Source: Candidatus Hydrothermarchaeum profundi
GTDB taxonomy: Archaea; Hydrothermarchaeota; Hydrothermarchaeia; Hydrothermarchaeales; Hydrothermarchaeaceae
DNA: 64,000 nt
Reading direction: 5' to 3'
Assembly (NCBI GenBank): GCA_002011125.2
Contig: MTMF02000009.1
Span: 1,096,989-1,160,988 of the forward strand
The notes under the pieces are model-generated. The model was not told where the DNA came from. It worked only from the letters and a program-made list of their open reading frames with translations, and did not search any database. This document shows positions 3 to 35,208 of this stretch, piece by piece. Each line of letters begins with the position of its first letter. Within the stretch, counting starts at the first letter, position 1. The position numbers were made by a program, and so were the translations under genes.

Positions 3-3000
3 ACTGCATTTGGAACAACAAACTTGGGTGCTATAGAATACTACAACTGGACATTAGATACTCCTTGCCCTGGGTCTTTGGATTGTTATATCGCGAACAT
101 TTCAGTTTATATAAAATATACAGATCAAGGTACTGGGGCTGGTGCAGATCCAGGTCAAAGTTATGTGCAGATAGCTAATTTCACTGAAAGAAATCCAGAC
201 CCCTCTCTGGCTAATTATAGTCGTTATGCTGCATATTCTCCAGACACTGCAGGCGGAGAGACTGTAGAAAGATGGGAGTGTGGAGAAAGCACGTCGCCAA
301 ATACCTGTAGCCTTTCATTAGGAAGCGGATATAATGCTAGTGATTACTACTCTGTAAAAATAGAAGTACCTGCAAAATATAGTGCAGCAGTATCTTCAGT
401 AAAATACCTCTGGTGTTATAATACCTCAAATCCTGCCTTAGTGGATGCCAATGTAACCCCAGCGAGAGGTGGTTGGGGTGAGATATTCAATTTTACCGTG
501 AATGCTAGTGATCCACAAAATTCGACTGTAAACATCAGTTTATGGAAGTCCTATAGCATTCTTGATCCAACTTGGATACTAATAGATAACTATTCTTTAT
601 ACCCCTCAGATCCCCCTGTAATTGTTAATTTTACTGGTAGATTTTTCAAACAATCTGATGTGGACAGTACTATATACTATAAATTTAATGCCACAGATGG
701 ATCTAACACGAATGAAACGGAGATTAGATCATTAATAATAGAAAAGGACGACATAATTATCCAACACGGTAGTGGGAATGGAACGACCGTTAACCGTAGT
801 GATAGTCTATCTAATTATAGTGTAAATTTGACTACAATAGTTTTCGATACTGATAATCAAACCAATGTTAGCGATGGCATACCTGGAAAACTTTGGATAA
901 CACATGATGCTTCCCTTGGGTATCAGGTCGGAGATCAAGAAGGTGCTAGTACGCTAAATGGATATCTTCGAGCTTCAGCGACTGATGGGGTATTTAATCC
1001 TGACTGTAACTATAAGGCAGGAGTTCAGAAGTGGTACATGGAGATTACTGATAATTCATACTATAAAACTAATACATCTATAAACTACAGTGGAGACAAC
1101 TTCACTATTACTATACTGGGGGACCTTTCGATTTCTTCCTATAACATCCTGCCTTCAGCTACTATTGAAATTGGGAATAATGTAACAATAATATCGGATG
1201 TTCAAGACGATTGTGGGAGCGATATTGATGATGCGTCTGTGACCTTTAGGATAGTAAATAATACATATGGATACGACAATACCTACAGCGCAGATTTTAT
1301 TCCCTCATCTGACGATTATAGATTTAACCTTACAACCAACTTCAGTACTATTGAAGGTGTCTATAATGTTTATATAAATTCATATAAAGAATATCATTGG
1401 AATGGAACTGCAACAACTCAATTTAGATTATACTATAATCCATTATTAGAGGATGCGTCTGTTAGCGCATCAGAGATAGATGTCGGGCAGTATCTCAATT
1501 TCACAGTCAATGTAACTGATACTTTTAATGACACAGTTAGCATTTACCTCTGGACTAAGAAGGGGATAGGAAATTGGACACTTGAAAATTCAACCACTTG
1601 CACTGACTATGTTTTCCAATGTACTAATTGCAGTGACTTCGTAGCATATTGTTATAAACAATTCAGCGGCGGAGATGCTGGGACTTGGAGTTTCAAGTTT
1701 AATGCTACAGACGATAAGGGCAATACCCGAGAAACAGATATCGGATCTTTCCAAGTAAATAATGTTACACTTGTGTGGAACCACGTCCAGGGCAATGATT
1801 CTCTTGCTAATAGAAGCGGAACGCAGAATACTACGTTGGTATTGAATATTACTAAGCAGTCTGACGGTAGTCCCATAACGAATGAACAAGTGGAATTATG
1901 GGTGAGTACGGAGGGGGATATAGAAATCTCTTCGACAAAAGTAATGACTAATACAACAGATTCTTCGGGGTTAGTGTATTTTGATTTCGATCCAAGTTGT
2001 TCAATAAATGTAGGAGTACAGGAATGGAAAGGAGTAATGGCAGGTAGCGCAGGATACACGAATCCTGATTCATGGGAAGACGCTAACTTATATCTCGCTG
2101 TAACTGTTAATGGCACCTTGCAGAATTCGATAGACGAGCCTAATGGAGATGACAATACAACTGCGGGAAACATTATCACGCTTCAAGGAGTCATAGTCGA
2201 TGATTGCGGCAACGCCATGAATATAACCAACGGAACAGGGTATGCCACTGAAAATATAGCTTTCAATCTTACCAATGGAGGATTCACAGAATCTTGTACA
2301 CCTATAACCTTGATTGGGTCTAATGTATACAAGTGCTCATGGAACACAACGGGCAAGCCATCGGGGTGGTACAATGTCACATTTTCAGCTGATGAAGACT
2401 ATTACTATGGTAGCACGGTTACCCAATACGCTCCAAATACTTTCTTCCTTTTCACCCCTCCTGTTCTAGAAGATTATTCTGTAACTCCAACATCTGCTGG
2501 CTGGGGTGAGGGCAATTTCACATTTAGAGTTAATGTATCAGATTATACAGATTATTCAGGGCTTACCGTGAATGACACTGTTAGTGTACATCTATGGGAA
2601 AATCCTGGATCTGGTTGGACGGAGATATCACCTACAAACTATGCATGTACCGGATGCGATGATGAGCAGTTTACTTGGAGTAAGGAATATTCTTGTACCG
2701 AAGGCGGGGCCTCTGAAGTTGGATCGATTTTCTATAAGATAAATGCGACCGATGATTTTGATGGAGAAAGTCAGACTGAGACTCTTTCTTTTACTGTGGA
2801 AAAAGATGATGCAAAAATATATAATGTAACTCCCTCTTGGAATGCCACGATTAATAGATCCTCGGGTGTTACCTTTATTGTACAAATAAATGATACAGAT
2901 CGTAATACGCCGATATCAAATATAAATGAGTTCGGAAGGATCTATGTTACAATAGACGCCGATCTTGGTGCATGGGATTCACCTATCTTCAGTAGTACAA

Positions 3001-6000
3001 ATGCAACTGGTTACTTAAATAGGACTTTGACTGGTGGAGAAACTGGGACATGGTGTACTGGGGGTTATAAGCTAGGACAAGGCTACTGGAAAGCTGAAAT
3101 AAAAGACAGAGCCTGTTATAAGGATAACACCACAGTTGATATTCCCTTTATACTCTACGGAGACCTCATTAATACAATTCAAGAGCCAGATGGAACACAG
3201 AACTATACAAAAGGTGCCGGCAGTATAAGAATGAATGGCACGATCATAGATGACTGCTCGGCTTCTATTACCGGCTCAGGTACAACCGTTATATTCGAGA
3301 TATCTAATGGAGCTTATACCGATACATGTGTTGGCAACCCTGTAGGGAGCTATTATATCTGCGATTGGACTCCTCCACAAGGAGCGCCACTCGGATGGTA
3401 TAATGTTACTATGACTTCCTCCAAAAGCAACTATAATAACGGTAGCGATACTGTTAATAATGCCTTCTTCCTCCGAAGTGTTCCACGACTTGAGAATCCC
3501 TCTATACAAGCAGGAGCCTGGGGTCAGTCACCATTCAATTTCACAGTAACCCTGAAAAATGATAATAATGTGACTACATATGTATATCTATGGCTTTATA
3601 ACGCATCGTCTGGTTGGAATCTAGAAGATACGAGAATATGTACTGATTCTGAATGTTACAGTTATCAGGCAAACTTTTCACGAAACTTCTCGAAAGATGA
3701 GGTCGGTTCTTGGCAGTATAAGTTTAATGCTACGGATATTTCTGGCGCTACTAATAATACTCTCTCACCATCTTCTTTTGAGGTTCTAAAAGATGATGTG
3801 ATTGTCTCTTATATAGCTGGAGATGGAGTTGAAGTTAATAGATCTTCTGGCTCTGTGATTCTACGAGTTCAGATCAATGATACGATTAGAGGGAATATAG
3901 TAGTAGATGAGGGTACCAGTTGCGCATTTTGGATCGAGAAAGACGGGGTAAACTACGCCTCAGCTTTAATCAATACTACAGACTCTCTAGGATACTGTAC
4001 GTATTACTTCACTCCAGGAAATGATTATGGTGCAGGTGAGCAGAACTGGACAGCGGGTACTTATAACGATCCTTATTATAACAATAATAATCTCTCTGTT
4101 GCAAAATATTTGATAATTTATGGAGATCTGTCTGCTAATATATCAGATCCAGGGGATAGCAACATAGGGGATCTAATAACCATAAGGGGGCGGGTGATAG
4201 ATGATAATTCCAGCGAGGTAGTCGGTGCGAATGTAATATTTGAACTAAGAAGAGAACCTACCGATAGCTGGGAGATCTGTGGTGTAACCTATAACGAGAC
4301 TGGATCGAATGCTGGATGGTACAATTGTACCTGGAATTCTACTGGAAAAACTGCAGGTAGTTGGGATGTCAGGATGAAGGTAAGTAAGTCTTACCATAAT
4401 CCAAATGAAACCATTGAGATAGACTTATTCAATCTAATTAGTCAACCTCCTTCGGGCACAGGGCTTAGTGTTACGCCACCTGTAGGTGGTTGGGGAGAAA
4501 CATTCACGTATAATGTGTCTGTTTCTGATCCTGAGAATGACAATGTTACATGCAAACTTTGGGTCAATACCTCTGGTAGCTGGGAGTTAAAAGGGTCTCA
4601 GATACAGACTGCGCCTTATAATTGCTCGATACAAGTTTCGGATTACACTACGTTAGATATTAACTCCAATTACTCATTCAAGTTCGAATTAAATGACTCA
4701 AATAATTTAGTAAATACAAGCCTAGCCTACGGAGAAATAGAAAAAGATGATACTTCTCTGGATATCCTAGTCAATGATGAAGATGCAATAAGAGGACAAA
4801 CCATTGTATTCTCAGGAGTATTAACTGACACGGATAATGGTAATCCTATCAGCGGAGCCGCTATTAATCTTACTAAAGACGGCGAATATGTTCCTTACAG
4901 TAATACTACAAATTCTACAGGCGGGTATGTGATTTACTATACAATTAGCAGTAGTGAAGCATTTGGCGGTCACAACTTTAGCGTAATCTATGAAGGCAGT
5001 TCTTCACTAAAGGGAAGCATTTCTAGTAACATCTCAGTGAATATTAGTCCTTCGCTCACGCTATTAGATTTAACTACAGATGACAATAAAGGCTGGGGAG
5101 AAACATGGAATTTCAAAGTAAATGTTACTTCTGATCCGGCGGCACCTAGTGTTACCATCTGGTTGCAGTATAATAGATCAGGGTCTTGGGTTAACATAAA
5201 TTATACCGAGTGTGCAGACTGTACAACAACTACAACAAAAATAATTACCTCAAACTGGAGCAGAGATGACTCAAATCTAACGAGATACTACAGGTTCTAT
5301 GCAAATGACAGCAATCAAAACAATGCTACAACGCCATCTGGAAATGTAAATATACAAAAAGACGACATTGTAATCCAGGGGGAAGGCGGAGTAGGAGCGA
5401 CAATAAACAGGTCTAATTCTATAAATCTCTCCTCAAGGGTAATAGACCTCGATACGGGTGCATATGAAGTCGATATAAATACCACCTCCGCCTTCTCCAC
5501 TTGGATAACTGCTGATGGGGAAAACTATACAGAGGTAAGTGAAGAAAAAAATGAGACTCACTTCTACTACACTTTTACGCCCACTTGTGGAGGACAGTAT
5601 CAACTTGGGACTCAAAAGTGGAAAATGAATGTCAGTAACGCTGCTTACTTTAAGGACAACGAGTCAGCAGAATATACAATAACCATACTGGGAAGCTTGT
5701 CAAATATCTTAATCCAGCCTAACGGTTCTACAAATTATACGATTGGAGACACCATAATACTAAGAGGTAATGTGTCAGATGATTGTGGTAACGCAGTTAC
5801 AGGAGCAACTGTAAGCTTTAAACTTGAGACCAATGGCGCTACCTACTTATGTGAGGGTGCCAGCGTTAGTGATGAAGGGAACGGTTGGTATAATTGCTCA
5901 TGGGATTCTAGTGGTAAACTTAATGGCACATGGTATAATGTAACCATAATAGCTAGTAAAACCAATTATTGGAATGGTAGTGATTCTATTGCTAATGCAT

Positions 6001-9000
6001 TTTATCTTTCCACAAGACCTGTATTAGAAGATGTCTTAGTATCGCCTCCTACGGGAGGATGGGGAAAGAGTCCCTACTACTATACTGTTAATGTAACCGA
6101 TACCGATGGGAATAATGTCACAATACGATTTTATCTGAGAAATGAAACAGGAGAATGGATTTTAAGAAATTCTACTAGCTGCGTAAACTGTAATGATTAC
6201 ATTGTAAATTTCTCTTGGAGTTATAGCTATACTGATGTAGGTACTTGGTTTTTCAAGTTCAATGCCACAGATGAAAGTGGAAGTACCGCTACTACCTCAG
6301 GAGAAGAAAATCATACGATTTCTAAGGATGATATTCTAGTCTCATACCTAGCTGGAGATGGTGTTGAGGTTAATAGGTCAGGAAACGACTACGTGAATCT
6401 TTCTACTTTCATAACCGATACTGAAAGGAACGTCAATGTTACGGATGCTAGTGTCAAAATTTGGGTTACAACAGACGGCACTATTTTTGATAATGGGACA
6501 ACTGTTACTCCTGAAGGTAACTATTATGTCTTCCAATTTAATCCTCCTGGAGCTCCATCATGCAATTACTCGGCAGGAGTGCAAAAATGGAAGATGAACA
6601 TTACTGGTGATCCAAGGTACCTGGATAACACTTCTCAGGAATTCTCAGTTAAAATTTATGCGGATATGGATATTGCTATTCTAGAGCCAAACTCAGAGGA
6701 TATAACTATCGGCGACTCTATCACAATAATTGGAAATGTGACAGATGACTGTGGGGTGCCTGTGACAGATGCTTCCGTATTCTTCAATATAACTAGGAAT
6801 GGAGCCTACGTAGGAAACTGTACGGCTACTCATGTCGGGGGAGGTAACTACTCTTGTAGTTGGGATTCTACGGGGAAGACCGAAGGCTGGTATAACGTCA
6901 CAATGATATCAGAAAGGTCTTATTATTATAATAAGACGTCCTTGAAATCTAATGCATTCCGCCTGGTAGGGGCTCCAAAACTCGATAATCCCAGTTATTC
7001 GACTTCCTCTGGTGGAAATGGTTGGGGTGCGACTTACAATTATACAATAACTGTGACAGACACTGAGGAGGATACAGTAACTGTGTACTTCTGGATTAAG
7101 AAAGCTGGAGGAACATGGGCATATCAAGGAAACCAAACTTGTACTAATTGTAGTGGATATGTGATGTCATTTTTAAAGAACTTTACTTGCAACGACCAGG
7201 GTACTTGGTTTTTCAAGTTCAATGCCACAGATCAGGGAGGCAATACAAATACAACATCAGAATCTGATAATTATCATAATGTAGAAAAGGATAGAGTTTC
7301 ATTTACTCATGTTTCTGGAAACGGAACAGAAGCCACTACGGTAATACCCACTACTTTCAAACTCTATCTAGGGGATATCGATAAAGGAGAGGCAGTAGCA
7401 GATGGAACTGAGGTGATATTCAATGTTACTTATGATGGAACGAATTATTTCGAATATGGTCCTAATTTGACCCAAGGCGGAAATGTTTCATACAGCTTCT
7501 TGCCCAATATGAGCTTCACTTCGGGCTGGCAGAGTTGGACTGGGCAGCATATAGAGGATTCTTGCTATTTATATAATATATCAAGTATTTACGTAGTAAA
7601 TGTCACCCTTAAATATCCTCCATATATCGAAAACGGCACAGTAAGCGGAGTAACTGGCGGAGTTTCAAAAGGCTGGGGAGAGACATGGAATTTCAGCGTA
7701 TGGGTGAAGGATGTTGACGATGCGGTGACAGTAACTTTATGGAAGACAGATTTATCAGGTTATGTTGAAGATTCTAACTGGGAAAATATTAGCCAACAGG
7801 TCTATACTGATATTGGCAACTGGCAGCAACTTAACTTTTCACCTATTTTCACGCCTTCTGATATGGGTACATGGTACTACAAATTTAACGCTACTGACGA
7901 AGCAACGAATACTAATTCTACTCAGAGGTCCCTAAACTCTAACTTTACAATAACTAAAGAAGGCATAATCTTTGAATATGACGCATCATGGGCTGAAAAT
8001 AACGAATCCATACCAGCAAATAGAAGTGGAACTCAGAGTAAGGAACTCTTAATATTAGTAAAGGACATTAATGGAACTCCCCTTTCTAACTTTAATGTAA
8101 CATTTCAGATTGAACGAAAAGGGGAGGGTACTAACACTTGGTGGGATTATGATGTAGTAACTAATTCAAGTGGCTACGCTAATTTGTCATTTGATCCTAC
8201 CTGTGATAACGCTAGTACTGTAGGGGTAGATGAGAGATTTGAAGTTGGAAAGCAGAAGTGGAGAGTTAAAGTTGTTGGACTAAGTGATTATAATGATTCT
8301 TATTCTGATGAATATAATCTTACAATCTGGGGAGACACTAGGATTTACTTTGACTATCCATTAAACCAAACATATACTCTTCCTAATAGGGTACCCTTTG
8401 AAGGCCGTATTTTTGATGACTGTGGAGAAAGCCTGCCTAACGCGGAGGTAGAGTTCTGGGCTCTAGGAGCAACACATTACCTCTGTGGAAACACAAGTAG
8501 TGGAGATGCCTATGAGCCTGTTCCGGGACTTTATAGATGTAGAAATGAGGGAGAAGATGGATGGAAAACATCAGATAAGCCGACAGGCTACTATAATGCT
8601 ACCTGGAATATTACCCTTTCCTATTACTATATTAACAATTCAATTAGCGGAAGGATAGTTCCGATAACTGACAATCTTACATTAGCTAAATCGCCAGGAT
8701 GGTTTGAGCTAACAATTTCAGCAAATGCACCTGATTTAAGTGAAGCTGATGTAGAACCAAGGAGAGATGGATGGGGTGTTAAACGCAATTTTAGTGTAAA
8801 AGTCACAAATCAAAATGGAGATGTAATGAACATAAGCCTCTGGTACCAGCCTCCTGCTCAAGCAGAAATATTGTTGGCTTATACTGGTAATGTAACTTCT
8901 AATGGTTCAGACATCATCTATTTCCGTGATATATCCTTCGACTCTAGCCTATCAGGCCAAGTTATGAAATTTAAATTTTATGCCTCTGACAATGATGGAG

Positions 9001-21000: not shown

Positions 21001-24000
21001 ATTGGAGATTTAAATCTGCTAATACTTCTATTTATCTCTTAACTATAATCGGGAGCCTTGATAATCCATTTACACAACTTACTACACCTAATGTTGGATC
21101 AGAATTTTTGAGAGGAGAAAATATATCCTTCTCCGGTAGCGTTTATGATGACTGCTCTAATATTGTTAATGACGCAAATGTATCCTTCATATCTACTCAC
21201 ACTTCTTCTGGCAATGAATATCTATGCCAAGCCACCTACAACAATACGGACCAAGTATACAAGTGTACAAGAAATACTTCGGGAATGGAAGCTAGGTATT
21301 ATAATGTCACAATGAACATATCTAAGGCATACTACGATGACTACGCTATAACTTATGAAAACAGGTTTTACATAATAACTGAACCCGAATTTTCAGGTAT
21401 CTCTGTGAATCCAACCCAAGGAGGTTGGGGCGAAGTATTCTCCTTTACAGTTAATATAACTGATGACGACCTTGATAATGTAACATTATGGTTATATGCC
21501 CGGAGATACGGTACAGCTGAATGGAATAATCTAAACTCCACAAGCATTGTTGGAGCATTGAACGAGACAGTAACTTTGACAGCGAGTCGCTTTGATTCAG
21601 TTACATATAATGCGTGGCAAGGACCTGATAATGAAACTTGGGAGTTTGTATTTAGAGCAAGGGATAATAGCTCTAGGAACAATGATCTTTACAGTTCTAC
21701 AGTAAACTTCACAATAGAACAGGATGATGTAAGGTTTGAGATAGTCTCAGGCGACGGAGAATCGATATGGAGAAATGGTACGGATACTGAAAGACTTGTG
21801 GTAAGAGCAATAGATGCTGACACTAATCAACCATTACCGGCGAGTATGAGCATAAATTTCAGTATAACAGTAAATGGAACTGACTTTGAAACTTCATTCA
21901 AAAACATAACCAACAGCTCGGGATATGCGGTATACGAGTTTAGTCCAACCTGCAGTTATACAACAGGAATACAATATTGGAAAGTAACCTCAGATAATAA
22001 CCAGTATTACAAAAATAGTGAATCGGACAATTATACAATCATACTTTATGGAAATCTATCTTCTACAATAGAACTTCCAGATATATCTGTTCCAGGATAT
22101 AAGGCATATGCTTATCTTAGAGGTACTGATGTACCGATCTCAGGTTTATTAGAGGATGACTGTGGGAATCCTGTTGAAAATGCAACTGTAACATACACCA
22201 TAGAAAAAGGAAATCCCGTAAAAATTGCTCCAGGCGCTTCTGTCGGACTAGGTTACTATAACTATACATGGACAGAGTCAGGAGGCAAACCCTATGGCTA
22301 CTACAATATTACTATGAGTTCTAGCAAAGACTATTACGCTAGCAATACCACAAAGAAAGAAAACGCCTTCTATTTGGCGGATGATCCGTATCTCGGAACC
22401 CCTGCGCTTACAGTAGAGGATGATTATGGATGGGGTGAGGACTTCACATTTTCAGTACCTCTTGAGGATTGGGATGGCGACATTGTTAATGTAACTCTAC
22501 TAAAGAAAAAAGAAGGAGAAAATTGGACGGTAATTGATTCTAAGAATGCTACTACTTCTACGGTGCAATTCATCGAGAGCTTTACTCCAGACGACATGGG
22601 ACTAAACTATTACAAGATAAATGCCACCGATCCATGGGGCTTTTCTACAGAAAGCACCATTAAGAATTTCACGATAATCGAAGATGATATAGCGGTGTAC
22701 ATAAATGAGGGCGGAGGCAAAGACGTAAATAGAAAGACAGGTTCACAGCTCCTAGAGGGCTGGTTTAAGGATATAGATACGGGGCAAGGGGTTCCAGATG
22801 GAGTTGAAGGTAAAATTTGGGTAACCCTTGATGGATCAACTTATACTTTAGAATTTACTTGTAATACAACAACAAAGAATTCTATACCTGGTTACTGTGG
22901 AGTTTACTATACTCCGCCATGCAGCTCTGAGGTGGGTACGCAGTATTGGAAAGTAGGTGTAACTGACAGCAGATACAAATCTGTTAATGCTAGTGATAGC
23001 ATCACAGTGAAAGGACAATTAAACACAACGGTAGTAAGCCCAGATGACGGAATAATCCTAAATCGTGGAACTACAGAAGTCTTACTTAATGCGACAGTAT
23101 GGGATGAATGTGGAAATGAAAAAACTTATGAACAAAATCTTGAGGTAAGATGGTATAATAGTACATCAACAGTAAGTTCTAATTTACTGGTAACAGGCAA
23201 TAATGTGACTTGGCAGGTTCCCGATAATTATGAGTTAGGCCCAGAGACTATATACGCAGATGCAGGTAATCTACCGAACTATAATAACGCCAATACAAAC
23301 TGTGAAGCGTATTGCGGTAATGTATCGGTTGATATTTATGGCTGGAGTCAATTATACTCTATTGCCCCTGTTAATGGTACTATACTACAAGCATGGGAAG
23401 GCAGAGAAGATATCCGGTGTGTTGTGAAAGATCCTGATTTAGAGTGGCCAGGTTGGATCGTAGGTTACCCCGTAGAGTTCTTTAAAGATGGAATTTCCGT
23501 ATGGAATGATACAACAGATGATAATGGGGAAGCTATTTGGGGAAGACTAATCGCATCTGAAGGCTGGTACTTGGCGGAGGAGAGCTATGGTTGGCATAAT
23601 ATAACGTGCAGAATAAAAGACAACGCATCTAAATTTTATAATGTTTCAGTATCTGAGATAAGCTCATTAATATTTGTGAATAGAACCTTAGTTCTTGATG
23701 ATTTTTCTGCAAATCCTGCAACAATATATAGAAACGATTCATTTTCGCCTAATGAAAGCGTGATTTCAGTTACTTTAATTGATTCTGATGCAACTATTGG
23801 TGGAGAAGAGAATGCGACTGTATTCTTCTATAATCACACTATGGACTATATTGGCGAGTGCAAAACTGATAGTAGTGGGACTTGCTCAATCATATTTAAT
23901 CCCTCAGATACGATAGCTCCAGGTATATATGATATATATATGAATGCTACTTCTTCTGATCCTAAGGTTGCTAATTTAAGCATCAGTAAGATTTCTTTAA

Positions 24001-27000
24001 CTGTGCTCGGCAAGTTAAATGTTAATATAACATCGCCAGAGCCTAGAACATACACTAAATATAGCAGCATACCTCTAACTGCAATAATTACTTCAGAAAA
24101 TGGAGATCAAATAACAGATGCTTATGTCGCCTGGTATAACTCAAGTGGGGATATAATTGCAGTAGGTAATGGAAGTGAGACGTGGAGTACCGGGAGTTTA
24201 GCGGTTCAAAAAACAGGGGAGCAGGTTATAACAGCAAATGCAAGCAAGGACTATTACGATAGCAATTCTGGGGTTGTGACTATAGTGATTGGCGGAGAGG
24301 CTAAGGTTGAGTATCTTGCTCCGAAATCAGATACAAATTATCCAGATCCTATTAGCATATCATGTCTAGTAAAAGACGTCACCTATGATACTGGAATTGA
24401 AAACTATACCGTTGACTTTTGGAAATCTTATTCTGGAGAAGAGTACACTTATCTGAGTACAGAGAAGACTAATTCTTCGGGCATAGCGAACTATACCTGG
24501 GTGCCTCCTAAAAAGGGCACAGTCACTTTCAGATGTAATATAACAAGTGAGAGCAACTATACAGTGAATTCCACTAGGGGAGATAATGTATCCTCCTTTA
24601 CTATCACAATTAGGGATATAAAGCCGCCTACAATTTCTAGTGTAGTCATTTATCCCAATCAGAGCTTCGAGGCCTATACGACTGTCAATATTTCAGCAAA
24701 TATCACCGACGATTCAGGTATTGAAAACGCATGGGTACGAATTATTACGCCGAATGAGTCTGTTGTCATAATAGATATGCAAAATGTTTCTTCGATTTAT
24801 TCAGCTCAATATGACCCTCCAGTTGATGGCAGATATAAAGTTGAAATACACGCTGTAGACTTACCGCCTGACAGCAACGAGAATATGGTTTACAGCTATA
24901 TCTACGTATGGGGTAAAGCAAATGCTACGTTAAATAATACACCAATAAGTGTAAATCTATGGAATGTATTCTACAATAAAGGAGAAACATTTGAACTTTC
25001 ATTGAATTTCACAAATTATGGTAATGGCACAGCTTATGCCGTGAATATCACCTATAATGACACAGATCCTGAAGTCGATTTAGAATTCATTCCAGATTCT
25101 TGGGAGTGTGGAAATGTAAACAAGAGCGAAAGCTGTGCTATTAATGTAAATGTTACAATACCCTCTGCGACTACCCAGAGAACTATCATAGTACAAGCAA
25201 ATGCTACTTGGAGGAATCCAGACAGAACCATTAATATCTCGACCGTGACAACTGCAGCGGTTGTTAAAGATAATAGAGTAATAGAATTTGCTGTAATACC
25301 TGATATGCCCTTTATAACTCCCCACGGGACAATTAGCTCAACAAGTATTGTGCTCCTCTCGTCGGGCAATGCTAATGTAGGTAAAACCAATGTCAGTGCT
25401 AGAGACGGAGATGAAATTAATAAACTACATGATTACTGTCCAGATTGTAAAGTTAGAATTGAAAATGAGAAAATCTATTATATCAGCAGCCTGCCATGGG
25501 GGACAAACAAAACAATGCTCCTCACAGTTGAAGTTCCCACCTATCAGCCTCCTGGAACTTATATTACTCACGTCTGGGCAGAACCTGAAAACGCGGCTAG
25601 TATACAGTTCCCATTAACGATAGAGATTCCGGGAAATGCCTCTTGGCAAGTTTCACCCAATGATCTCGGTAATACTACCTCCTTCGTTCCTCTTCCAGGG
25701 CAGTATACCGAGGGTAAGATAGGAGACATAGTTATTACCAATATCGGAAATGTCAGAATCGATTACTCAGCTTCTACTCCAAGCATATCTGATATGAACG
25801 GTACTACGATACAGGCCATATTCACAGATACTGGTACCTCTGAGAACTATGCATATCCCGGAAATTCTATAGTACTGGAAGTAAACTACTCTATCCCATA
25901 TACTGCTGAAATGGGCACATACTGCGATAATATAAGAATAGATGTAACTAACGCTGAGTCAGTACCGCCAGAAGAAGCTGAACCCACATGGATATATATC
26001 CCCTTCTGCTTGGAGGTTACGGAGCCCAAGACTTACTGGAATCACACTCCAGAAGTAATTTCAGCGGAAGTTCTCCATGGTACAAGCGGTTATTTAGCTA
26101 ACGTAACCATAGTCAATACTGGTAATACGCCAGCGATTATCCATGTTTCTACTAATGGCTCAATATCCACTAATATCACTAATATTAGCTTAGAGGTGGG
26201 GGAATCTATATCGGTGCCTCTAAACTACTCAGTAAATTATACTACTCAGCGGATATACGATATCTCCTACCTCATAACGGATAATGAAACAGTTAATATT
26301 ACACGGTATACGATAGTAAATCTAACAGTCCACCCATATTCATTTGAGATTACTTATCCTACAGAAGCGGATAGAGCCGTAAATAAAGTAGCAGGAGAAA
26401 TATTAACAATACTCGTGAACGCTACATATGGAATGCCTATATCTTCAGGAATGAAGTTTACTGTTGAAATATCAAATGAGACGGAAACTATAATTTTCAA
26501 TGATTCCGAAGTCAATTCCAGTTATGATCCAGATACAGGGTTATGGGCCATTAATGTAACAATTCCAGAACTTGGAGATCCAAGTGCACCTGAGAGAGTG
26601 GCGAGCATAAATGTTTCAGCCAACTATACGGATATTGGATTTGTCCTATCAGATTACGAGCAAAACGCGTTAGTTTATAAAGACACAGTTAAGCCTATTT
26701 TATTCGTTTCGGTTACCCCTTGGTTTGGCTTAATAAATGACACAATAAACCTCTCTGTAATGGCTACAGATGCCGGAGGCATTAATAAGATCTCTGGAAA
26801 TGTGACTATTGAAAATGAAACCTATGATCTAAATTTGACATATACCGGTAATTATGAAAACACATATACATACGAAGGGAACTTCAATAATACCCGCCGA
26901 TCCGGCATATATCATGTGAGCATAGTAGCGTGGGATACTTCAAATAACTCGGAAATAATTGAAACAGATTTCGGTATATATTCCCCAATAAGTATAGGAG

Positions 27001-29864: not shown

Positions 29865-30676
29865 GAGTTTTATTGTTAATTATAATATTATGCACCTTTG
29901 ATAAAGTGAGCGTGGTCTACGGATCTGGTATAAGTGTAGAGACCGATATGGTAGAGCCTGTATTTGCTCCTGGAGAAATTGGGAGGTATTCTGTATGGAT
30001 TACAAATAATCTGAAAGAAAATCAAACTATAACTATTTCTCCTGCTGGTAAGATATCTAACTTGTTGGAAGTTTATTTTGAGGGCAAAGAACTCTCAACT
30101 AGTAATTTTAAGCTTAGTACTGATACGACGGAACATCTTGAGTTAATTGTTAATGCTCCGGAGAATCCAGGGATATATACAGGATATCTTGTTTTATCAT
30201 CTGGATGGGGAACCCAAGCGATACCAATATCAGTAAAGGTTATTGATGATGAGCCGTTGATGGATGTTAAGGTGGAGGCTATTACGAAGGAGCTTTCGTT
30301 GGGTAGTCCTTTGAAGTTTTATGTTTCTCTTTATAATCTTGGTTTTAAGGAGAGGTTTGATGTTCATCTGGTGTATGCGGTTAAGGAGTTGGAGACTGAG
30401 AGGGTTTTGACTAAGGTTGAGGAGGAGATGGCTATTGAGACTTCTCTTTCTTTTGTTAGGGTTATTCCGGCTGAGAACCTTAGCTTGGAGGCCGGTAGGT
30501 ATTATATTGAGGCGGCGGCCTTGTATGAGAATAAGTCTGCTTCTGCCGCGGATATCTTCACGGTGTTTAAGCCTTTCTGGACTACAACCAAAAAAATAGC
30601 AGTTCTACCTATATTCGCTGGGTTAGGTCTGATATGGTATAAGAAAAAAACAGGAAATATTGGGGGGTTGAAATGA
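29861..30676 (+). CDS. Small membrane-anchored surface protein, paralogue of the giant protein's membrane-proximal region
   Basis: N-terminal hydrophobic signal (MRVLLLIIILC). The first domain resembles the giant's SVETNLG..PGEEKWYSIWITNHLKRNQ region and the second is identical. C-terminal TM plus WYKKK. ATGA overlap with the giant's stop. Confidence 0.9.
   Translation: MRVLLLIIILCTFDKVSVVYGSGISVETDMVEPVFAPGEIGRYSVWITNNLKENQTITISPAGKISNLLEVYFEGKELSTSNFKLSTDTTEHLELIVNAPENPGIYTGYLVLSSGWGTQAIPISVKVIDDEPLMDVKVEAITKELSLGSPLKFYVSLYNLGFKERFDVHLVYAVKELETERVLTKVEEEMAIETSLSFVRVIPAENLSLEAGRYYIEAAALYENKSASAADIFTVFKPFWTTTKKIAVLPIFAGLGLIWYKKKTGNIGGLK
30251..30601 (+). repeat. 351-bp exact direct repeat, copy 2
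   Basis: Identical to 28353-28703. Confidence 0.95.
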
Positions 30677-30781: not shown

Positions 30782-32218
30782 ATGGTCTTTTGGCGAAAAA
30801 AGGAGGAAGAGGAAAAAGAAGAAGAAATAGAGCTTTTAACCGATGAGGAATATGATGCTGAGGCAGAGTTACAGAAGCAACTTGAAGCGGAGAGGGAATA
30901 CGAGAGGAAGTTGCTAGAGAAAGAAAAGAAAGAAGAAACTAGAAGGGAAGGAGAAGCATTAACTCCTGAGAGCCTCCTCCTTAAAATAGAAAAACTTGAA
31001 GGGAAGCTTGCGACATTTGAAGAGGCAAGATCTAGAATAGATGATAGGATAATGAGGGTTTCAGAGCAAGTAGGCGAATTAAGATCAATGATTCTTGAAA
31101 GAGAAAAATCATTTGGTTTTCTCGAAGCCGAATTTGAAAATATTAAAGATATTTTTGAAACAGTTAAGCCAGATGAATTTGCAAAGGAGTTAGATAGGAA
31201 AGAAAAGAAGATAATAGAAAATAAGATTCTCATAGAAAGACTCGAAGAGACTGTTGACCGCCTTGGAAAAGAGGTTTCAGAATTCAGGAAGTTGATTGAT
31301 AAAATAAAAAGTTTCGAAAACTTGGTGGAGATTGCGCAATCTGTTAGCGAGAAAGTTAGTGCAGTAGAGGAAACAAAAAAGTATACCGATAGGTTATCGG
31401 CAAAGGTGGAAACAATTTTTGCAGAGCTTACTGATAGGTTAACCGAACTCGAAGAAGATAGGAGTAAGATAATAAGGTTTGATGAGCTTTCAAAAGAGTT
31501 GCTCAGATCTCTTGATAACCTATATGTAAAATTAGAAGGAGCTGTTACTAAAACCGAATTATCTGAAGAATTAAGAAATCTTGAGAATTTTTTAGTAGAA
31601 AGATTTGCTGCTTCAGAGGGAATGAATGATAGATTAATCAGCGCAGAGGAGGCTATAAAGAATCTTGAAAGAAGGATTCGTTTATTAGAGCTGGAGAAAG
31701 TCAGTATGGAGATAACTGATAGAATTAGGAAAATAGGGCCTGAGCTGAAAGAAATGCGTAGAATTGAAGAACTCACGAGAGAAAGTCGAGAGATCCTAGA
31801 ACTAATGAAAATAGTTGATGAGGATTATAAGAGAGGAGCAATATCTGAGGAGAGTTATAATGAGATTAAAAGTAAGAATCAGAAAAAACTAGAAGAAATA
31901 AAAGATGCACTAAGGGAAGATTTCAAGAGACTAGAGAAGATGCTTGAAGTCGAGCTGACTCCCCCGGAGGTTATCAAGGAAGAGAAGGAAGAAATACCAA
32001 CTACGAACCAAGACGAGTTGGAGAAAAAAATAAAGAGGCTAGAGATAGAAAGAAAGAGTGTTTTAAATCTGTTGGAAAATCTTTCTAATGAACCTAATGA
32101 GGCGAAAAAGAAAGTGCTGGAGAAAACATATAAAGATAAGCTTGAGCAAATTTCTAATAATATAATGAGTCTAAAAAAAGAATTAGCATCTTCTGAGGCG
32201 ACGGGAGATGAGGTTTAA
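30782..32218 (+). CDS. Long coiled-coil protein of unknown function
   Basis: E/K/L/I-rich heptads throughout, no Walker motifs and no TM. Short MVFWRKK N-terminus and a YKRGAISEESY motif near the C-terminus. Confidence 0.85.
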   Translation: MVFWRKKEEEEKEEEIELLTDEEYDAEAELQKQLEAEREYERKLLEKEKKEETRREGEALTPESLLLKIEKLEGKLATFEEARSRIDDRIMRVSEQVGELRSMILEREKSFGFLEAEFENIKDIFETVKPDEFAKELDRKEKKIIENKILIERLEETVDRLGKEVSEFRKLIDKIKSFENLVEIAQSVSEKVSAVEETKKYTDRLSAKVETIFAELTDRLTELEEDRSKIIRFDELSKELLRSLDNLYVKLEGAVTKTELSEELRNLENFLVERFAASEGMNDRLISAEEAIKNLERRIRLLELEKVSMEITDRIRKIGPELKEMRRIEELTRESREILELMKIVDEDYKRGAISEESYNEIKSKNQKKLEEIKDALREDFKRLEKMLEVELTPPEVIKEEKEEIPTTNQDELEKKIKRLEIERKSVLNLLENLSNEPNEAKKKVLEKTYKDKLEQISNNIMSLKKELASSEATGDEV

Positions 32219-34400
32219 GGAAAAAATAAGCTCATTATTCGAGGCTATTTTTCATAGGAAAAAAGATGAACAGCCTATAATGGAAGAAGTTGAAGAAGAA
32301 AATAATGAAACGGAGAATGAAGACCCTGAGAATCAACTTATAATAGAAGAAGCAGCGCCTGAATATGTGCTATTAAGCGCATTTGCAAAAGAAAAGCCTG
32401 AGATAGGATTCTCATATGCGCTGAATAAAATCGAAGAGCTCAAGAGGCAGATTAATTATCTTAGTAATGAAGTACAACTTCTCCAAATGAAAAACAATTC
32501 TCTAGCAGAAACGAATCTTCTACTAGAGAAAGATCTAGAAAAAATCGCTGTGTTTACAGCCCAGTTAGAGGAAGTAAAGGAGGACCTCAGGGAAAAAGAA
32601 AGCCTAATAATGCTCAAGGAGTCGGAGATCCAAGAGCTAAATAAAACAATAGAGATTCTCAATAGCGAGATTAATCAACTTAATAAAGACCTAGAGGAAA
32701 AGGACGAGGAAATTAAAAGACATCTAGAAACTATTCAACGCCTAGAAGATGAATCTAAGATAGCCAATCTTGAGAGGGAGATAAGAGACCTTAAGGTAAA
32801 ATTATCAGAACAGGAAGATATGCTCGCTGTAAAGACCTCTGAGGCAGAGCAATACATGCAGATGGCGGCTTCTCAAGATGCGGAGCTTAATTCTTTAAAG
32901 GCTACTTGGTGGGAATTGAATAAGGAAGTTAAGAGTCTTAGAGCCGAGCTAGAAGAAAGAACTGCATTACTGGCTTCTAAGGAAGCCATGGTAAAAGAAC
33001 TGGTGAAGAAGTCCGCAACTATCAGAGCCGAAAACGACCGACTCAAGAAGGAACTAACAGAGAAAAACAGAATCCTTGAAGACTATAAAGATATGGAGGC
33101 GCGGGTTAAAGAACTTACTAAACAGAGAGACAAAGCAGAGTTACTACTAAGAGAGGCTAAGAAGAAAATTAGACAACTAGAAGATGATTCTAAAGTTGCT
33201 GGCTTGGAAGCTGAACTAAGAGTTCTGAGGCCGTTAGCAGAAGAAGTAAAAGTTCTCAGAAGAACTGTCGAAGAGCAGAGAGCTGCTTTAGAAAAAGCTA
33301 CAGCTGAAGCCGAAGAGTACAAAACCATTGCAGCTTCTCAAGATTCTGAGTTAGGTTCCCTAAAAAATACTTGGTGGGAATTAAATCAGCAAATAAAAGC
33401 ATTGAAAGCGCAACTCGGGGAAAAAGACGAGATCATATCGTCTAAGGATAACACAATAGCAGAGCTTACCGGTAAAACTGCCGCTTTGGGTACGCAAGTC
33501 GAGAAGCTAAGGAGGGAGTTGGAAGATAGAGAGAGAAAGATCGAGTCATACGAGAGCAGATTATCAGAACTTGAGGAAGCGAGACGTAAAATTACTGAAG
33601 AGTTTGAGAAGCAGAAAAGAACATTGTCAGAGCAAACAGCCTTGGTAGAGGAACTAAAGAAAGAACTTGAGGATAGAGAAAGGAAGATAGATTCTTATGA
33701 AAGAAGGATCACAGAACTCGAAGAGGCAAAGCGTAAACTAGTAGAAGATTTTGAGAATCAGAAAAAGATACTCGCTGAAAGATTGTCAGAAGCTGAGCAA
33801 TTTAAGATGATGGCGGCAGCCCAAGATGAAGAACTTACGACGTTGAAGAATACTTGGTTTGAACAGAATCAGCAAATAAAGAGGCTTAAAAAAGAGCTGG
33901 AAGAAAAAACAAGTATTTTAGAATCTAAAGACTCCCTTATACGTGAGTTAACTAAGACTGGTGCTGCATTAAATGCTAAGATCCAACAGCTTGAAAAGGA
34001 GTTAGCAAAGAAAGATAAAGAAATATCTGAAAAGGAGAAAGAGATTCTTTTATCTAAAACAAGGGAAGCTCAGGTTTCTATTCCCGCTTCTAAGGATGCG
34101 GAGAAATTGGCTGAATATGAGAAAAAACTTTCTGAACTTGAGACTATGATAAAGTTATTAACTCAACAAAAAACTTCTATAGAGTCCGCTCAGACAGTAG
34201 TTCCTATGGGACCAGTAGAACCTGGGGCTGGAGTGTCTCATAAAATTGCGAAAGAGCTGAAGCTTTTACAAATACAAGAGAAGTCTCTCTTACGCTCTTA
34301 CGAAAATATCAAAGATAAAAACAGTCCGAAAGCTAAAATATACAAATCTAAGATTGATCAGATCCAACAGCGCATTAGAGAACTCAAAGAACATGTTTGA
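32208..34400 (+). CDS. Long coiled-coil protein with internal repeats
   Basis: Heptad pattern. Three copies of EAE[QE][YF]..[MI]AA.QD.EL..LK.TW[WF]E.N and a tandem 49-aa repeat. Overlaps the previous gene by 11 nt. Confidence 0.85.
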   Translation: MRFKEKISSLFEAIFHRKKDEQPIMEEVEEENNETENEDPENQLIIEEAAPEYVLLSAFAKEKPEIGFSYALNKIEELKRQINYLSNEVQLLQMKNNSLAETNLLLEKDLEKIAVFTAQLEEVKEDLREKESLIMLKESEIQELNKTIEILNSEINQLNKDLEEKDEEIKRHLETIQRLEDESKIANLEREIRDLKVKLSEQEDMLAVKTSEAEQYMQMAASQDAELNSLKATWWELNKEVKSLRAELEERTALLASKEAMVKELVKKSATIRAENDRLKKELTEKNRILEDYKDMEARVKELTKQRDKAELLLREAKKKIRQLEDDSKVAGLEAELRVLRPLAEEVKVLRRTVEEQRAALEKATAEAEEYKTIAASQDSELGSLKNTWWELNQQIKALKAQLGEKDEIISSKDNTIAELTGKTAALGTQVEKLRRELEDRERKIESYESRLSELEEARRKITEEFEKQKRTLSEQTALVEELKKELEDRERKIDSYERRITELEEAKRKLVEDFENQKKILAERLSEAEQFKMMAAAQDEELTTLKNTWFEQNQQIKRLKKELEEKTSILESKDSLIRELTKTGAALNAKIQQLEKELAKKDKEISEKEKEILLSKTREAQVSIPASKDAEKLAEYEKKLSELETMIKLLTQQKTSIESAQTVVPMGPVEPGAGVSHKIAKELKLLQIQEKSLLRSYENIKDKNSPKAKIYKSKIDQIQQRIRELKEHV

Positions 34401-35208
34401 TGACGATTTTTTCTTTGAAAAACTAAAGAAAAGAGTAAAAGAAAGTATCGATTTTCAAACTCAGTTTTACGGTGATAAACATCTCAAGCGGAGATTTCAA
34501 ATTAGAATGAGAGCCCTAGGCATTAAAACTTACAGAGAATACGAGCAATTACTTACTAATAACCCTGAAGAATATGATAAGCTGATAAGAGTACTAACCG
34601 TTAACGTTACTGAATGGTTTAGAAATCCAGAGGTATTTGAGGCTATTAAGAAAAAAGTCTTTCCGAGTCTATTTGAAGAAATGGAAAGAAATAATAGGAA
34701 ATACCTCCGGATATGGAGTATAGGATGCGCTGATGGCAAGGAACCATATTCTGTTGCAATCCTATTACATGAATTTCTGGGAGAGAAAATAAAGAATTTT
34801 GCTATCGTAATATTTGCCTCTGATATTGATAGAGAGGTATTAGAGAGAGCAAGAATAGGAAGATATCATGAAAGCGAAATGAGAGGCTTAAACTCGGAGC
34901 AGATTAAAAAATATTTTATCAAGGAAGATGGGACCTACACTATTATTCCCTCTATGAAAAATTTAGTAAAATTTGAGAAAAGAGATCTACTTAAGGATAG
35001 GCATCATGTTGGATTAGATTTAATTCTATGTAGAAACGTTGTAATTTATTTTACAAGAGAGCTGAAGAAGCGATTATATAAGGAGTTGTATAACTCCCTT
35101 AGAAAGGGAGGATATTTTATTTCAGGTAAAACCGAGTCTATAATGGGGGAGGCGAGAGGACTATTTTCTCCAGTTGATTTGGAAAACCGGATTTATAAGA
35201 AGGTCTAA
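34393..35208 (+). CDS. cheR: CheR-type protein-glutamate O-methyltransferase
   Basis: LTVNVTEWFRNPE, RIWSIGCADGKEPYS, ASDID, DLILCRNVVIYF and GKTES are CheR motifs. Start placed at ATG 34393, overlapping the upstream stop (track start is 34354). Confidence 0.93.
   Translation: MFDDDFFFEKLKKRVKESIDFQTQFYGDKHLKRRFQIRMRALGIKTYREYEQLLTNNPEEYDKLIRVLTVNVTEWFRNPEVFEAIKKKVFPSLFEEMERNNRKYLRIWSIGCADGKEPYSVAILLHEFLGEKIKNFAIVIFASDIDREVLERARIGRYHESEMRGLNSEQIKKYFIKEDGTYTIIPSMKNLVKFEKRDLLKDRHHVGLDLILCRNVVIYFTRELKKRLYKELYNSLRKGGYFISGKTESIMGEARGLFSPVDLENRIYKKV

Follow-up and report, generated by a model that had tools for sequence, protein, structure and literature searches.

A SPEARE-family giant protein in a Hydrothermarchaeaceae genome

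The stretch of DNA analysed here, called the window below, comprises 64,000 nt of Candidatus Hydrothermarchaeum profundi (assembly GCA_002011125.2, contig MTMF02000009.1, positions 1,096,989 to 1,160,988 of the forward strand) and opens inside a giant gene which very probably encodes a SPEARE-family cell-contact apparatus of this Hydrothermarchaeaceae archaeon, i.e., a very long extracellular fibre joined through one transmembrane (TM) helix to a cytoplasmic ATPase. Within the window, the open reading frame (ORF) runs from 3 to 29864 (+) over 9,953 codons, its 5' end being open in the ORF listing; in the genome, numbered G000 in this study, its start lies outside the window, at an ATG (G000:C9:1094345) located 2,644 nt upstream of the window start. 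A single uninterrupted ORF of more than 9,950 codons and more than 1 MDa had been pointed out in the preliminary description of this DNA, and the frame proved to be even larger, the full product computed from the genome frame having 10,835 aa, 1,197,942 Da (1.2 MDa) and a pI of 4.36. The window contains no N letters, and the gene is carried by the main contig (C9, 1,917,514 nt) of a 2.19-Mb genome with 97.65% completeness and 1.46% contamination. The giant gene is followed by four co-oriented genes coding for an ATPase-less mini-paralogue, two coiled-coil proteins (CC1 and CC2) and CheR.

According to passages of PMC6642349, SPEARE proteins were defined in Nanohaloarchaeota as proteins of up to 8,553 aa, mostly extracytoplasmic, with a TM helix near the C-terminus; versions of 655-717 aa also exist, the cytoplasmic part is the most conserved region and was then interpreted as a type III restriction enzyme, and similar sequences occur in Woese-, Aenigm- and Micrarchaeota and in Altiarchaeales. 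Proteomics shows that a SPEARE protein is made, its ecto- and cytoplasmic parts being found in different size fractions (PMC6642349, same passages). Passages of a 2023 study (PMC10266531) describe proteins of 9,409 and 8,880 aa in which a Sec signal peptide is followed by some 75 Ig-like domains, a TM domain and a cytosolic part made of a "VirB4/TraG-like ATPase" and a terminal coiled coil; there, the nuclease and protease readings were rejected, a second ATPase gene downstream was noted, and a type-IV-secretion-like "straw" injecting effectors into the host was proposed. Finally, passages of PMC8470020 report SPEARE proteins of 12,127 aa in the metagenome-assembled genome (MAG) KA27 and of 8,146 and 3,105 aa in KA24, and use them to argue for the symbiotic lifestyle of DPANN archaea.

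At least 580 loci in species-representative genomes encode a relative of the ATPase, and the best 80 of them were analysed (loci and genomes are cited by our L and G numbers). Among these 80 are the loci of KA27 (L046) and KA24 (L060). The window ATPase matches the KA27 genome with 58% identity (E 4e-152) at the end of a 12,145-codon frame, and the KA24 genome with 58% and 48% identity at the ends of frames of 3,107 and 8,146 codons, respectively. Because these matches lie at the ends of frames of about the published SPEARE lengths, the giant protein is considered a member of the SPEARE family. Therefore, the architecture, taken for an undescribed machine in the preliminary description, had in fact been published, as passages of PMC6642349 and PMC10266531 illustrate.

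The giant protein shares with SPEARE proteins an N-terminal signal, a very long extracytoplasmic adhesion region, a C-proximal TM helix, a conserved cytoplasmic ATPase and a helical tip, as well as a ~330-aa ectodomain unit, and its family contains the short members and giant/short tandem pairs that were published. It differs in its host, which is a 2.19-Mb Hydrothermarchaeaceae genome (Methanobacteriati) and not a DPANN symbiont, and in its next gene, which codes for the ATPase-less mini-paralogue and not for a second ATPase, with the two coiled-coil genes coming thereafter. With 10,835 aa, it is longer than the 9,409-aa protein given as the "largest in cultivated archaea" in passages of PMC10266531, and shorter than the 12,127-aa protein of KA27 and than an 11,081-codon open frame in genome G011, from another family of the same order.

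The features of the giant gene, all on the + strand, are as follows:
3..29864: giant gene, part within the window (ORF list, and genome extension to the upstream ATG)
276..23150: 24 super-repeats of ~330 aa, each of about three macroglobulin/Ig-like beta-sandwich domains (self-similarity, jackhmmer, AlphaFold2 (AF2), Foldseek)
27870..27960: Pro/Gly hinge (SPPAPPPAGGGGGGGGGVAAP; poly-Gly from aa 10183), preceding the membrane-proximal module, with non-repeat sequence before it
28023..28718: membrane-proximal two-domain module, common to the mini-paralogue and nearly all family members
28353..28703: copy 1 of a 351-nt repeat, aa 10333-10449, covering the last ectodomain and the first TM-helix residues
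28698..28748: single TM helix, aa 10448-10464, with the positive cytoplasmic flank RARKWYIARK (AF2: long helix, residues 4-37 of the C-terminal fragment)
28824..29651: HerA-clade (DUF87) P-loop ATPase core (Pfam, NCBIfam, alignments, AF2, Foldseek)
28917-28940: Walker A motif, GATGSGKS
29295-29309: Walker B motif, IVFDE
29373-29393: arginine-finger motif, REFRKWG
29412-29417: SQ motif
29652..29861: C-terminal three-helix domain of the ATPase (AF2 helices 326-351, 357-371 and 375-394)

A Kyte-Doolittle scan of the full chain revealed just two TM-like segments, one near each end. The N-terminus consists of a basic n-region followed by a hydrophobic stretch (aa ~10-30) resembling a signal peptide or an N-terminal anchor, whereas the C-terminal segment, IAMIALFLITTAGASGY, is the one followed by RARKWYIARK. 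This is in line with the single TM helix with a positive-inside flank described previously. The remaining hydrophobic windows were confined to the buried Walker A region of the ATPase core. Besides, 559 N-x-S/T sequons precede the TM helix (5.4 per 100 aa) vs. none in the 365 residues after it, a distribution with which an outside-inside topology fits. About 10,400 aa of the giant protein are extracellular, with a Sec-type signal peptide at the front.

The junction between ectodomain and ATPase

The fusion of a giant ectodomain to an ATPase passes through a direct repeat of exactly 351 nt (28353-28703 = 30251-30601), the two copies being 100% identical while their flanks are merely 24-31% identical. 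Copy 1 sits at the junction between ectodomain and TM helix, and copy 2 lies within the following gene, the mini-paralogue. The exactness of the repeat and its position precisely at the junction would suit an assembly chimera, in which ectodomain and ATPase had been wrongly joined there, a possibility that the preliminary description had itself raised. To this may be added that the unitigs of one public run (X1, possibly the source sample) break at the repeat.

Contigs of four public runs were placed on window positions 27600-31400. Of the four unitigs of X1, X (21,180 nt at depth 91) ends at 28382, R has 351 nt and a depth of 176, Y covers 28674-30280 (1,607 nt) at depth 88, and Z (56,825 nt) has a depth of 88.5. 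With R doubled and Y single, the depths of 1x, 2x, 1x and 1x allow the path X-R-Y-R-Z alone. In X3, a separate study of a strain 95-99% identical, one contig (record 14) covers 28205-28773, i.e., 148 nt of ectodomain, all of the repeat and the 70 nt of the TM/cytoplasmic part that come next. In X2, a third study with a 99%-identical strain, one contig (record 8) covers 28353-29996 and leads from the repeat into the ATPase. Mis-assembly at the repeat is thus rejected, since the X1 depths and the X3 and X2 contigs, from three studies, support the joint. In addition, the same fusion of ectodomain, TM helix and HerA/FtsK-type ATPase is conserved in hundreds of homologues, including the 11,081-codon frame of G011, and the chimera is hardly credible.

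A recent conversion over 351 bp has presumably kept the two copies identical. Recombination between them could in theory remove the ATPase; this form was not observed, the corresponding X-R-Z joint being reported in none of the four runs, whose contigs drop rare variants. In X2, contig cover is near nil over 30267-30647, the repeat copy of the mini-paralogue, while copy 1 is contiguous with the ATPase. The two copies may differ in this strain, the contig gap by itself proving nothing.

The cytoplasmic domain is a HerA-clade ATPase

The residues G81, G84, G86, K87, D210/E211, R233, R236, S246 and Q247 of the C-terminal fragment are invariant or at least 90% kept in alignments of 24 and 76 members, so that the Walker A, Walker B, arginine-finger and SQ motifs, reported as intact in the preliminary description, are not only present but conserved. 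The AF2 model of the last 395 aa, based on the 76-sequence alignment (pLDDT 95.5), starts with the long TM helix (4-37), continues with a RecA-like core and ends in three helices (326-394). The three-helix domain corresponds to the "coiled-coil at the tip" that passages of PMC10266531 mention for the homologues of nanohaloarchaea.

As anticipated in the preliminary description, profile and structure searches led to DUF87 and HerA. The best Pfam match is DUF87, the HerA central domain (6.3e-13), starting at profile position 3. In Foldseek searches against the PDB, Sulfolobus HerA (4d2i) came first (E 1.7e-13, TM-score 0.53), followed by anti-phage and NurA-bound HerA complexes, TcpA (rank 22), VirB4 (rank 35) and FtsK (rank 44). 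HerA 4d2i was also the best phmmer match among PDB sequences (2.7e-7), over a region spanning Walker A, Walker B, the arginine finger and the sensor. Marginal Pfam matches, all over the P-loop region, were obtained with AAA_10 (27.6 bits, cut-off 27.5), T4SS-DNA_transf (24.2, cut-off 20.1) and TrwB_AAD_bind (20.9, cut-off 20.5), which pass marginally, as well as with HerA_C, ResIII and FtsK_SpoIIIE, the latter missing its cut-off of 24 with 23.6 bits. The best NCBIfam match is CedD (3.9e-11), with 42.3 bits vs. a cut-off of 600. The HerA equivalogs NF040937 (37.5 vs. 800 bits) and NF040819 (25.9 vs. 970 bits) remain far below their cut-offs, as do TraC (20.4 vs. 567 bits) and VirB4_plasma (14.5 vs. 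590 bits).

The likeness to HerA thus includes the best fold and PDB-sequence matches, the motifs of the RecA-like core and the Pfam domains DUF87 and HerA_C. Instead of the HAS barrel of HerA, the giant protein carries the TM helix: only ~45 residues, right behind which the DUF87 match starts, separate the helix from the first strand of the core, which leaves no room for a HAS barrel, as judged from this gap and not from a dedicated HAS test. This agrees with the absence of the barrel claimed at the outset; nurA is likewise absent from the window. HerA shares an operon or complex with the nuclease NurA, and in archaea also with Mre11/Rad50. The giant gene has no NurA partner; the single NurA match of G000 (C9:1003881-1004675, 3.5e-28) lies ~92 kb before the window, beside another HerA-like ORF. 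Since the best Pfam, fold and PDB-sequence matches are all to HerA, yet there is no room for a HAS barrel, NurA is distant and the scores fall below the equivalog cut-offs, the cytoplasmic domain is a HerA-clade ATPase and not an orthologue of HerA, CedD, VirB4 or FtsK. The ORF beside NurA has 496 codons (region G000:C9:1003881-1006786; L099, L004), and a third HerA-like ORF of 516 codons occurs at C9:1735557.

Other relatives are membrane-anchored as well. CedB/CedD and VirB4/VirD4 are, like the present protein, membrane-anchored HerA/FtsK-superfamily ATPases at cell-cell contacts, CedD being the best NCBIfam match, at the low score given above; here, however, the ATPase is preceded by a TM helix and extracellular Ig-like domains, and the extracellular part, thousands of residues long, is absent from the Ced and type IV secretion systems. 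Moreover, the N-terminal domain of VirB4 (PF03135) is absent from the giant protein and from the eight short tandem members tested (8/8), and no conserved CedA/VirB6-like partner or pilin emerged from ORF clustering of the 80 loci, which included no profile search aimed at them. FtsK/SpoIIIE are also membrane-anchored ring ATPases of the superfamily (FtsK 6t8b being among the fold matches, E 2.1e-8), whereas the giant protein has one TM helix and not several, one ATPase domain, no gamma or FHA domain, and a three-helix C-terminus.

Two rival readings depend on these matches. In the original one, the protein would be a passive giant adhesin whose cytoplasmic domain degrades imported DNA. The hit behind this restriction-endonuclease reading of PMC6642349, as far as its passages tell, is reproduced here as a weak ResIII match (E 1.7e-4, 22.0 vs. 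22.5 bits); the match is limited to the P-loop region and falls below threshold, while the fold is that of a HerA-type ATPase with no nuclease domain. Passages of PMC10266531 reach the same conclusion for the nanohaloarchaeal proteins, and the reading, already largely refuted, is exceedingly improbable.

The second rival sees the protein as a surface sensor coupled to a HerA-scaffold effector, in the manner of HerA-ring anti-virus defence. Sir2-HerA and DUF4297-HerA complexes are among the fold matches, and PADLOC gave weak matches to HerA models (best 6.3e-12) and to mad8 (2.5e-12, 45 bits; ATPase residues 66-292, window 28872-29552, covering 15-276 of 314 profile positions). However, neither the gene nor the genes conserved around it contain an effector domain (Sir2, nuclease), PADLOC returned nothing for CC1 or the mini-paralogue, and we know of no defence system with an adhesin-like ectodomain of 10,000 aa. 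Such a sensor is therefore regarded as very unlikely.

A likeness of ATPase residues 245-388 (window 29409-29840) to the C-terminal domain of the flagellar switch protein FliG (E 0.003-0.07, three chains of one family) is probably due to chance, both regions being helical.

The ectodomain is built from diverged super-repeats

Residues 974-8598 of the giant protein form, between unique ends, 24 tandem super-repeats of ~330 aa each, as determined by windowed self-BLAST, jackhmmer and alignment, with a mutual identity of 24-44%. Whole-protein self-BLAST gave off-diagonal matches only after the sequence had been cut into windows, and Tandem Repeats Finder detected no DNA-level tandem repeat in window positions 1-36000. 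Hence the super-repeats are not simple DNA repeats and have diverged at the DNA level. Of the sequon-rich repeats first described, the sequons and the repeated organisation stand; the units are diverged protein units.

The AF2 model of one unit, with the 24 copies as alignment, is all-beta (pLDDT 90.5), and its best Foldseek matches in the PDB (E ~1e-10) are to the consecutive macroglobulin domains found in complement C3/C5 and in alpha-2-macroglobulin, with low TM-scores because the inter-domain arrangement differs. Pfam (E<=1e-3) gave weak matches of beta-sandwich type (MG2, Big_1, Big_7, CarboxypepD_reg, Dioxygenase_C) and no Laminin_G, peptidase, toxin-like or WD40 domain in the ectodomain. 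With about three beta-sandwich domains per super-repeat, the ectodomain would contain ~90-100 such domains. An Ig-like domain measures ~4 nm, and the fully extended ectodomain would accordingly span a few hundred nm. The ~330-aa unit recurs in the ATPase-fused ORFs of 36 of the 80 related loci, e.g., L060 (KA24) and L059, and glycine runs like that of the hinge are seen at the matching place in L019 and L067.

The membrane-proximal module that follows the hinge is 67% identical to that of the mini-paralogue over 232 aa. It occupies the equivalent position in the ATPase-fused ORFs of nearly all 80 loci, and its consensus blocks are kept in the 24- and 76-member alignments. Some convergent large ORFs downstream of CC1 also end in a membrane-proximal domain, without an ATPase match, and resemble giant counterparts of the mini-paralogue (L076:9689-14464(-), L050:9513-13226(-), L060:10032-15188(-), L049:3625-5397(-), L075:4784-7666(-), L035 and L059).

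Passive giant adhesins, of which passages of PMC6642349 name halomucin, resemble the present protein as acidic, megadalton chains of repeated Ig-like beta-sandwiches that are presumably glycosylated. They differ in being secreted or passively anchored, whereas the giant protein ends in a conserved and, to judge from its motifs, catalytically intact ATPase, accompanied by a gene for a cytoplasmic partner.

Distribution of the family

The last 395 aa were compared by HMMER with 1.84 billion cluster representatives, of which 1,105 matched at E<=1e-3 and 352 at E<=1e-30. The best 150 members range from 356 to 7,878 aa, 11 being longer than 5,000 aa. Among the 60 best hits (452-7,878 aa), 57 have a match that ends at most 12 residues from the C-terminus, whereas many lower hits extend 100-450 aa further. 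The hits bear names such as "DUF87 domain-containing", "DUF853", "helicase HerA domain-containing" and "ATP-binding"; named hits belong to Aenigmat-, Woese-, Nanohalo-, Micr- and Altiarchaeota, to Hydrothermarchaeaceae (the best, 76%) and to single Thermococcus and Heimdall MAGs. Across phyla, the ATPase is 42-76% identical over ~370 aa. As the membrane-proximal module and the ~330-aa unit recur too, the homology covers the whole giant protein and not just its C-terminus.

Among 41 genomes of relatives, strong matches (E<=1e-160) were found in G000 and G002, of the same family, and in G011 and G019, of the same order; strong matches occur in 4 of the 35 genomes of the order that were searched, G000 included. 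NCBI places Hydrothermarchaeota under Methanobacteriati, not with DPANN. In a FastTree phylogeny of 93 ATPase domains from the best 80 loci, with local support values, the window sequence groups with L019, L021, L020, L031 and G019a, which faintly suggests, for so quick a tree, a grouping with other sequences labelled Methanobacteriati; the tree was not used for donor or direction. Other non-DPANN labels of NCBI (MAGs of Heimdallarchaeota, Methanosarcinales and Halobacteria) may be binning errors and were not relied on. One example is L022, on a contig of 3.4 kb, whose neighbour is an Aenigmatarchaeota sequence.

Short members of ~630-730 aa, with only two membrane-proximal domains before the TM helix, exist as well and often stand in tandem with a giant. 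In at least ten loci (L042, L046, L057, L058, L073, L086, L089, L093, L097 and L098) the second gene is a short member with its own ATPase, in agreement with the second ATPase gene of PMC10266531, and the order giant, short member (~550-1,500 aa), CC1 recurs in these ten. The eight short tandem members examined all have DUF87/HerA_C as best Pfam match. In the tree, the paired ATPases of a locus mostly cluster with each other, which points to recurrent duplication or conversion within loci.

Close to the giant start, on its upstream side, the - strand (L001:8242-9533, i.e., G000:C9 ~1092586-1093877) carries a 179-aa fragment of an insertion sequence (IS)-type transposase (InsA zinc ribbon and the start of DDE_Tnp_IS240) and a 251-aa KaiC-like ATPase. 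Such a mobile-element remnant next to the giant gene may bear on the arrival of the locus.

The conserved partner CC1 and the other neighbours

The genes following the giant gene, all on the + strand, are:
29861..30676: mini-paralogue, 271 aa, with signal peptide, two membrane-proximal domains, TM helix and short basic tail, no ATPase
30782..32218: CC1, 478 aa, cytoplasmic coiled coil lacking signal peptide and TM helix; partner gene conserved in the family
32208..34400: CC2, 730 aa, cytoplasmic coiled coil, no signal peptide or TM helix, overlapping CC1, with three internal repeats of ~160 aa
34354..35208: CheR methyltransferase (Pfam CheR, 4.8e-53), overlapping CC2

The preliminary description had regarded all four as possible further components. 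For CC1, this is supported by its conservation as a partner gene. Homologues follow the ATPase genes in G011 (43% identity, 2e-67) and on contig 36 of G019 (40%, 7e-87), and another follows a tandem short pair on contig 115 of G019 (26%, 4e-20). A profile hidden Markov model (HMM) built from four Hydrothermarchaeales sequences, by which L031 is positive by construction, detected CC1 immediately after the ATPase gene(s) at 69 of the 80 loci (E<=1e-19), co-oriented in 68; the KA24 and KA27 loci are among the 69. In an independent all-against-all clustering of ORFs, CC1 was the sole widely conserved neighbour, in the same 69 loci. The other large clusters are antisense shadows of the ATPase and CC1 genes, and the next sense-strand cluster is present in just 13 of the 80 loci. 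The neighbourhood is thus conserved in other genomes, as had been asked at the outset. CC1 is missing in 11 loci, two with less than 500 nt of downstream sequence and nine with at least 1.9 kb.

CC1 and CC2 are coiled coil throughout. Searches of CC1 against Pfam and NCBIfam (48 members each), PDB profiles, PADLOC, PHROGs and the ESM Atlas returned only generic coiled-coil/helical-bundle matches, which remained well under the cut-offs, or unnamed archaeal clusters; a CdvA-like cluster in a structural row of the ESM Atlas was under the acceptance bar and was not used. Complex prediction with the ATPase (aa 30-395 of the fragment) and CC1 (aa 55-330) scored 0.00, a "no answer" that speaks neither for nor against binding.

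The homologues of CC1 share the N-terminal ~250 profile positions and vary widely in total length (~300-1,126 aa) and C-terminal sequence. Such a pattern would fit CC1 as a cargo, as in a type VII secretion system: an N-terminal helical domain of ~250 aa would target the ring, and the variable C-terminal part would be exported to the contacted cell. Indeed, EssC/EccC, a membrane-bound FtsK/SpoIIIE-type ATPase, exports helical-hairpin proteins encoded adjacent to it. However, CC1 has no recognisable secretion signal or toxin domain, a channel component is absent, and the variable parts look like further coiled coil or low-complexity sequence, which makes the cargo reading improbable.

The part of the other three neighbours is more restricted. 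Homologues of CC2 were found only in G011 and G019 (34-37% identity), i.e., in Hydrothermarchaeales, so that the role assigned to the coiled-coil neighbours holds for CC1 and partly for CC2. The internal repeats of CC2 (window 32839-33880) are diverged and ~470 nt apart, with a motif "...LK(A/N)TWW(E/Q)..." kept in the G011 and G019 orthologues. The mini-paralogue, whose start overlaps the giant stop by 4 nt and which contains repeat copy 2 (30251-30601), has a counterpart (271 aa, 33% identity) after the ATPase gene of L019, the closest relative, and none downstream in G011, and its place as a component is thus partly supported. In G000, the module occurs in the mini-paralogue and the giant protein and in no other copy. 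CheR was dropped as a component, being found in 0/80 related loci and not downstream in G011.

Proposed mechanism

In the explanation that we prefer, the ATPase would assemble into a ring beneath the membrane, like its relatives of solved structure, and by forming a ring it would bundle several anchors. Giant, short and ATPase-less chains could co-assemble through their shared membrane-proximal module, such mixed assembly easing the crowding of megadalton fibres. The long glycosylated fibre would reach and bind another cell or surface, and the ring, with CC1 acting as adaptor, scaffold or substrate, would use ATP to move a polymer, DNA or protein, where the contact is made. Such a translocating motor between touching cells is proposed by analogy and held with somewhat less than even confidence; as a compromise between this step and the much firmer identity and anatomy, the explanation as a whole is considered slightly on the probable side.

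Membrane-anchored HerA/FtsK-superfamily ATPases (FtsK, VirB4/VirD4, CedB/CedD) act in DNA or protein transport, and every characterised membrane-anchored member translocates polymer, to our knowledge. A translocating motor is favoured because these relatives translocate and because CedD provides an archaeal precedent: according to passages of PMC11868833, besides a TM helix and an N-terminal domain it has a HerA/VirB4-like ATPase, and DNA import depends on it.

Several observations weigh against this explanation. Each subunit has a single TM helix, and ORF clustering of the 80 loci yielded no conserved polytopic membrane partner; no channel being evident, the "straw" published in PMC10266531 (as its passages present it) is without a visible channel here. 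The conserved partner is a soluble coiled coil, which is uncommon among DNA translocases and would suit a scaffold or a part of a cytoskeleton equally. With the curated models of HerA, CedD, TraC and VirB4, the cut-offs are missed by far. The linkage with CC1 was measured in the best-scoring 80 of at least 580 loci, and the nine loci that lack CC1 in spite of ample downstream sequence include the closest relative, L019, even with an HMM of 48 sequences. As to the identity itself, the definition given in passages of PMC6642349 includes at least one laminin-G domain and multiple adhesion domains, with a serine-protease region in some proteins, and the giant protein is without the laminin-G and serine-protease domains that gave the family its name, according to Pfam. 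These name-giving enzymatic domains were, for their part, also disputed in PMC10266531, as far as its passages go.

The same observations can be read mechanically. The ring would then act on CC1, and here also on CC2, as an anchor coupled to the cytoskeleton, by which the adhesin is clustered, positioned, put under tension or pulled back, with no transport of cargo across the membrane. This is consistent with a soluble coiled-coil protein as the sole widely conserved neighbour, with the second coiled-coil protein of 730 aa added in Hydrothermarchaeales, and with one TM helix per subunit and no conserved channel protein; besides, short members, often in tandem with a giant, fit mixed rings that organise anchors. 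However, CC1 matches no known cytoskeletal family, and we know of no HerA/FtsK-superfamily ATPase that acts on a cytoskeletal coiled coil. A mechanical role is the strongest of the rivals and is, on balance, unlikely.

Beyond the preferred explanation of a contact-site motor, a broader reading may be entertained, which is doubtful when all its parts are taken jointly. The conserved core (two membrane-proximal Ig-like domains, TM helix, HerA-clade ATPase and adjacent CC1) might be a widespread and so far unrecognised archaeal trans-membrane machine, used also by free-living lineages, and not a gadget of DPANN symbiosis. Its ATPase ring might engage CC1 as a central stalk or track, or as exported cargo, and the ectodomain (~250 to >12,000 aa) might be an expandable reach module, lengthened by amplification of one ~330-aa unit. 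In Hydrothermarchaeota, such a machine might serve contact-dependent exchange of DNA or protein with other cells, and the fibre could, by recombination between the 351-bp repeats, change from an anchor with a motor to a passive one and back.

Significance for the SPEARE family

In the literature, SPEARE proteins count as a mark of DPANN symbionts, as in the passages of PMC8470020. The presence of a full-length, 10,835-aa member on the main contig of a Hydrothermarchaeaceae genome weakens the inference from SPEARE to symbiosis; the 11,081-codon counterpart of G011, in another family of the order, points likewise and widens the question of SPEARE function. The present comparison also offers a smaller, testable core, made of the ~370-aa ATPase, 42-76% identical across phyla, and of CC1, linked to it in 69 of 80 loci. 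It shifts the label of the cytoplasmic domain from VirB4/TraG-like towards the HerA clade, and the lack of an evident channel-forming partner bears on the published "secretion straw" model.

Several of these elements were not found in print: the copy on the main contig of a large non-DPANN (Hydrothermarchaeaceae) genome; the CC1 partner gene, on which the passages of PMC6642349 and PMC10266531 are silent; the assignment of the fold to the HerA clade rather than VirB4; the conserved membrane-proximal module together with the shared ectodomain unit; and the ATPase-less mini-paralogue with its 351-bp conversion tract. This applies to the passages of these papers, whose supplements (SI Table S3 and Fig. 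S17 of PMC6642349, and those of PMC10266531) may list more lineages or neighbours. The passages of PMC4158269 contain no description of the family.

Other genes around the locus

Upstream of the window, a divergent gene codes for a 1,963-aa protein with NPCBM_assoc and MG2 domains (L001:943-6834, -), which looks like another large surface protein; it is unrelated to the membrane-proximal module (best E 0.15). Downstream of CheR, genes for QueC (1e-57), DUF366 (1.6e-65) and a radical-SAM protein stand in a row (window 35247-37191, +), and probably form a cluster for 7-deazaguanine (archaeosine) biosynthesis unrelated to the giant gene. Further on, within the part of the window whose ORFs were scanned (up to 41 kb), there are genes for a RadC-like JAB protein (38291-38974, +) and for a protein of 632 aa (39184-41082, -) in which CarboxypepD_reg/Ig-like domains are accompanied by a weak match to DUF835.

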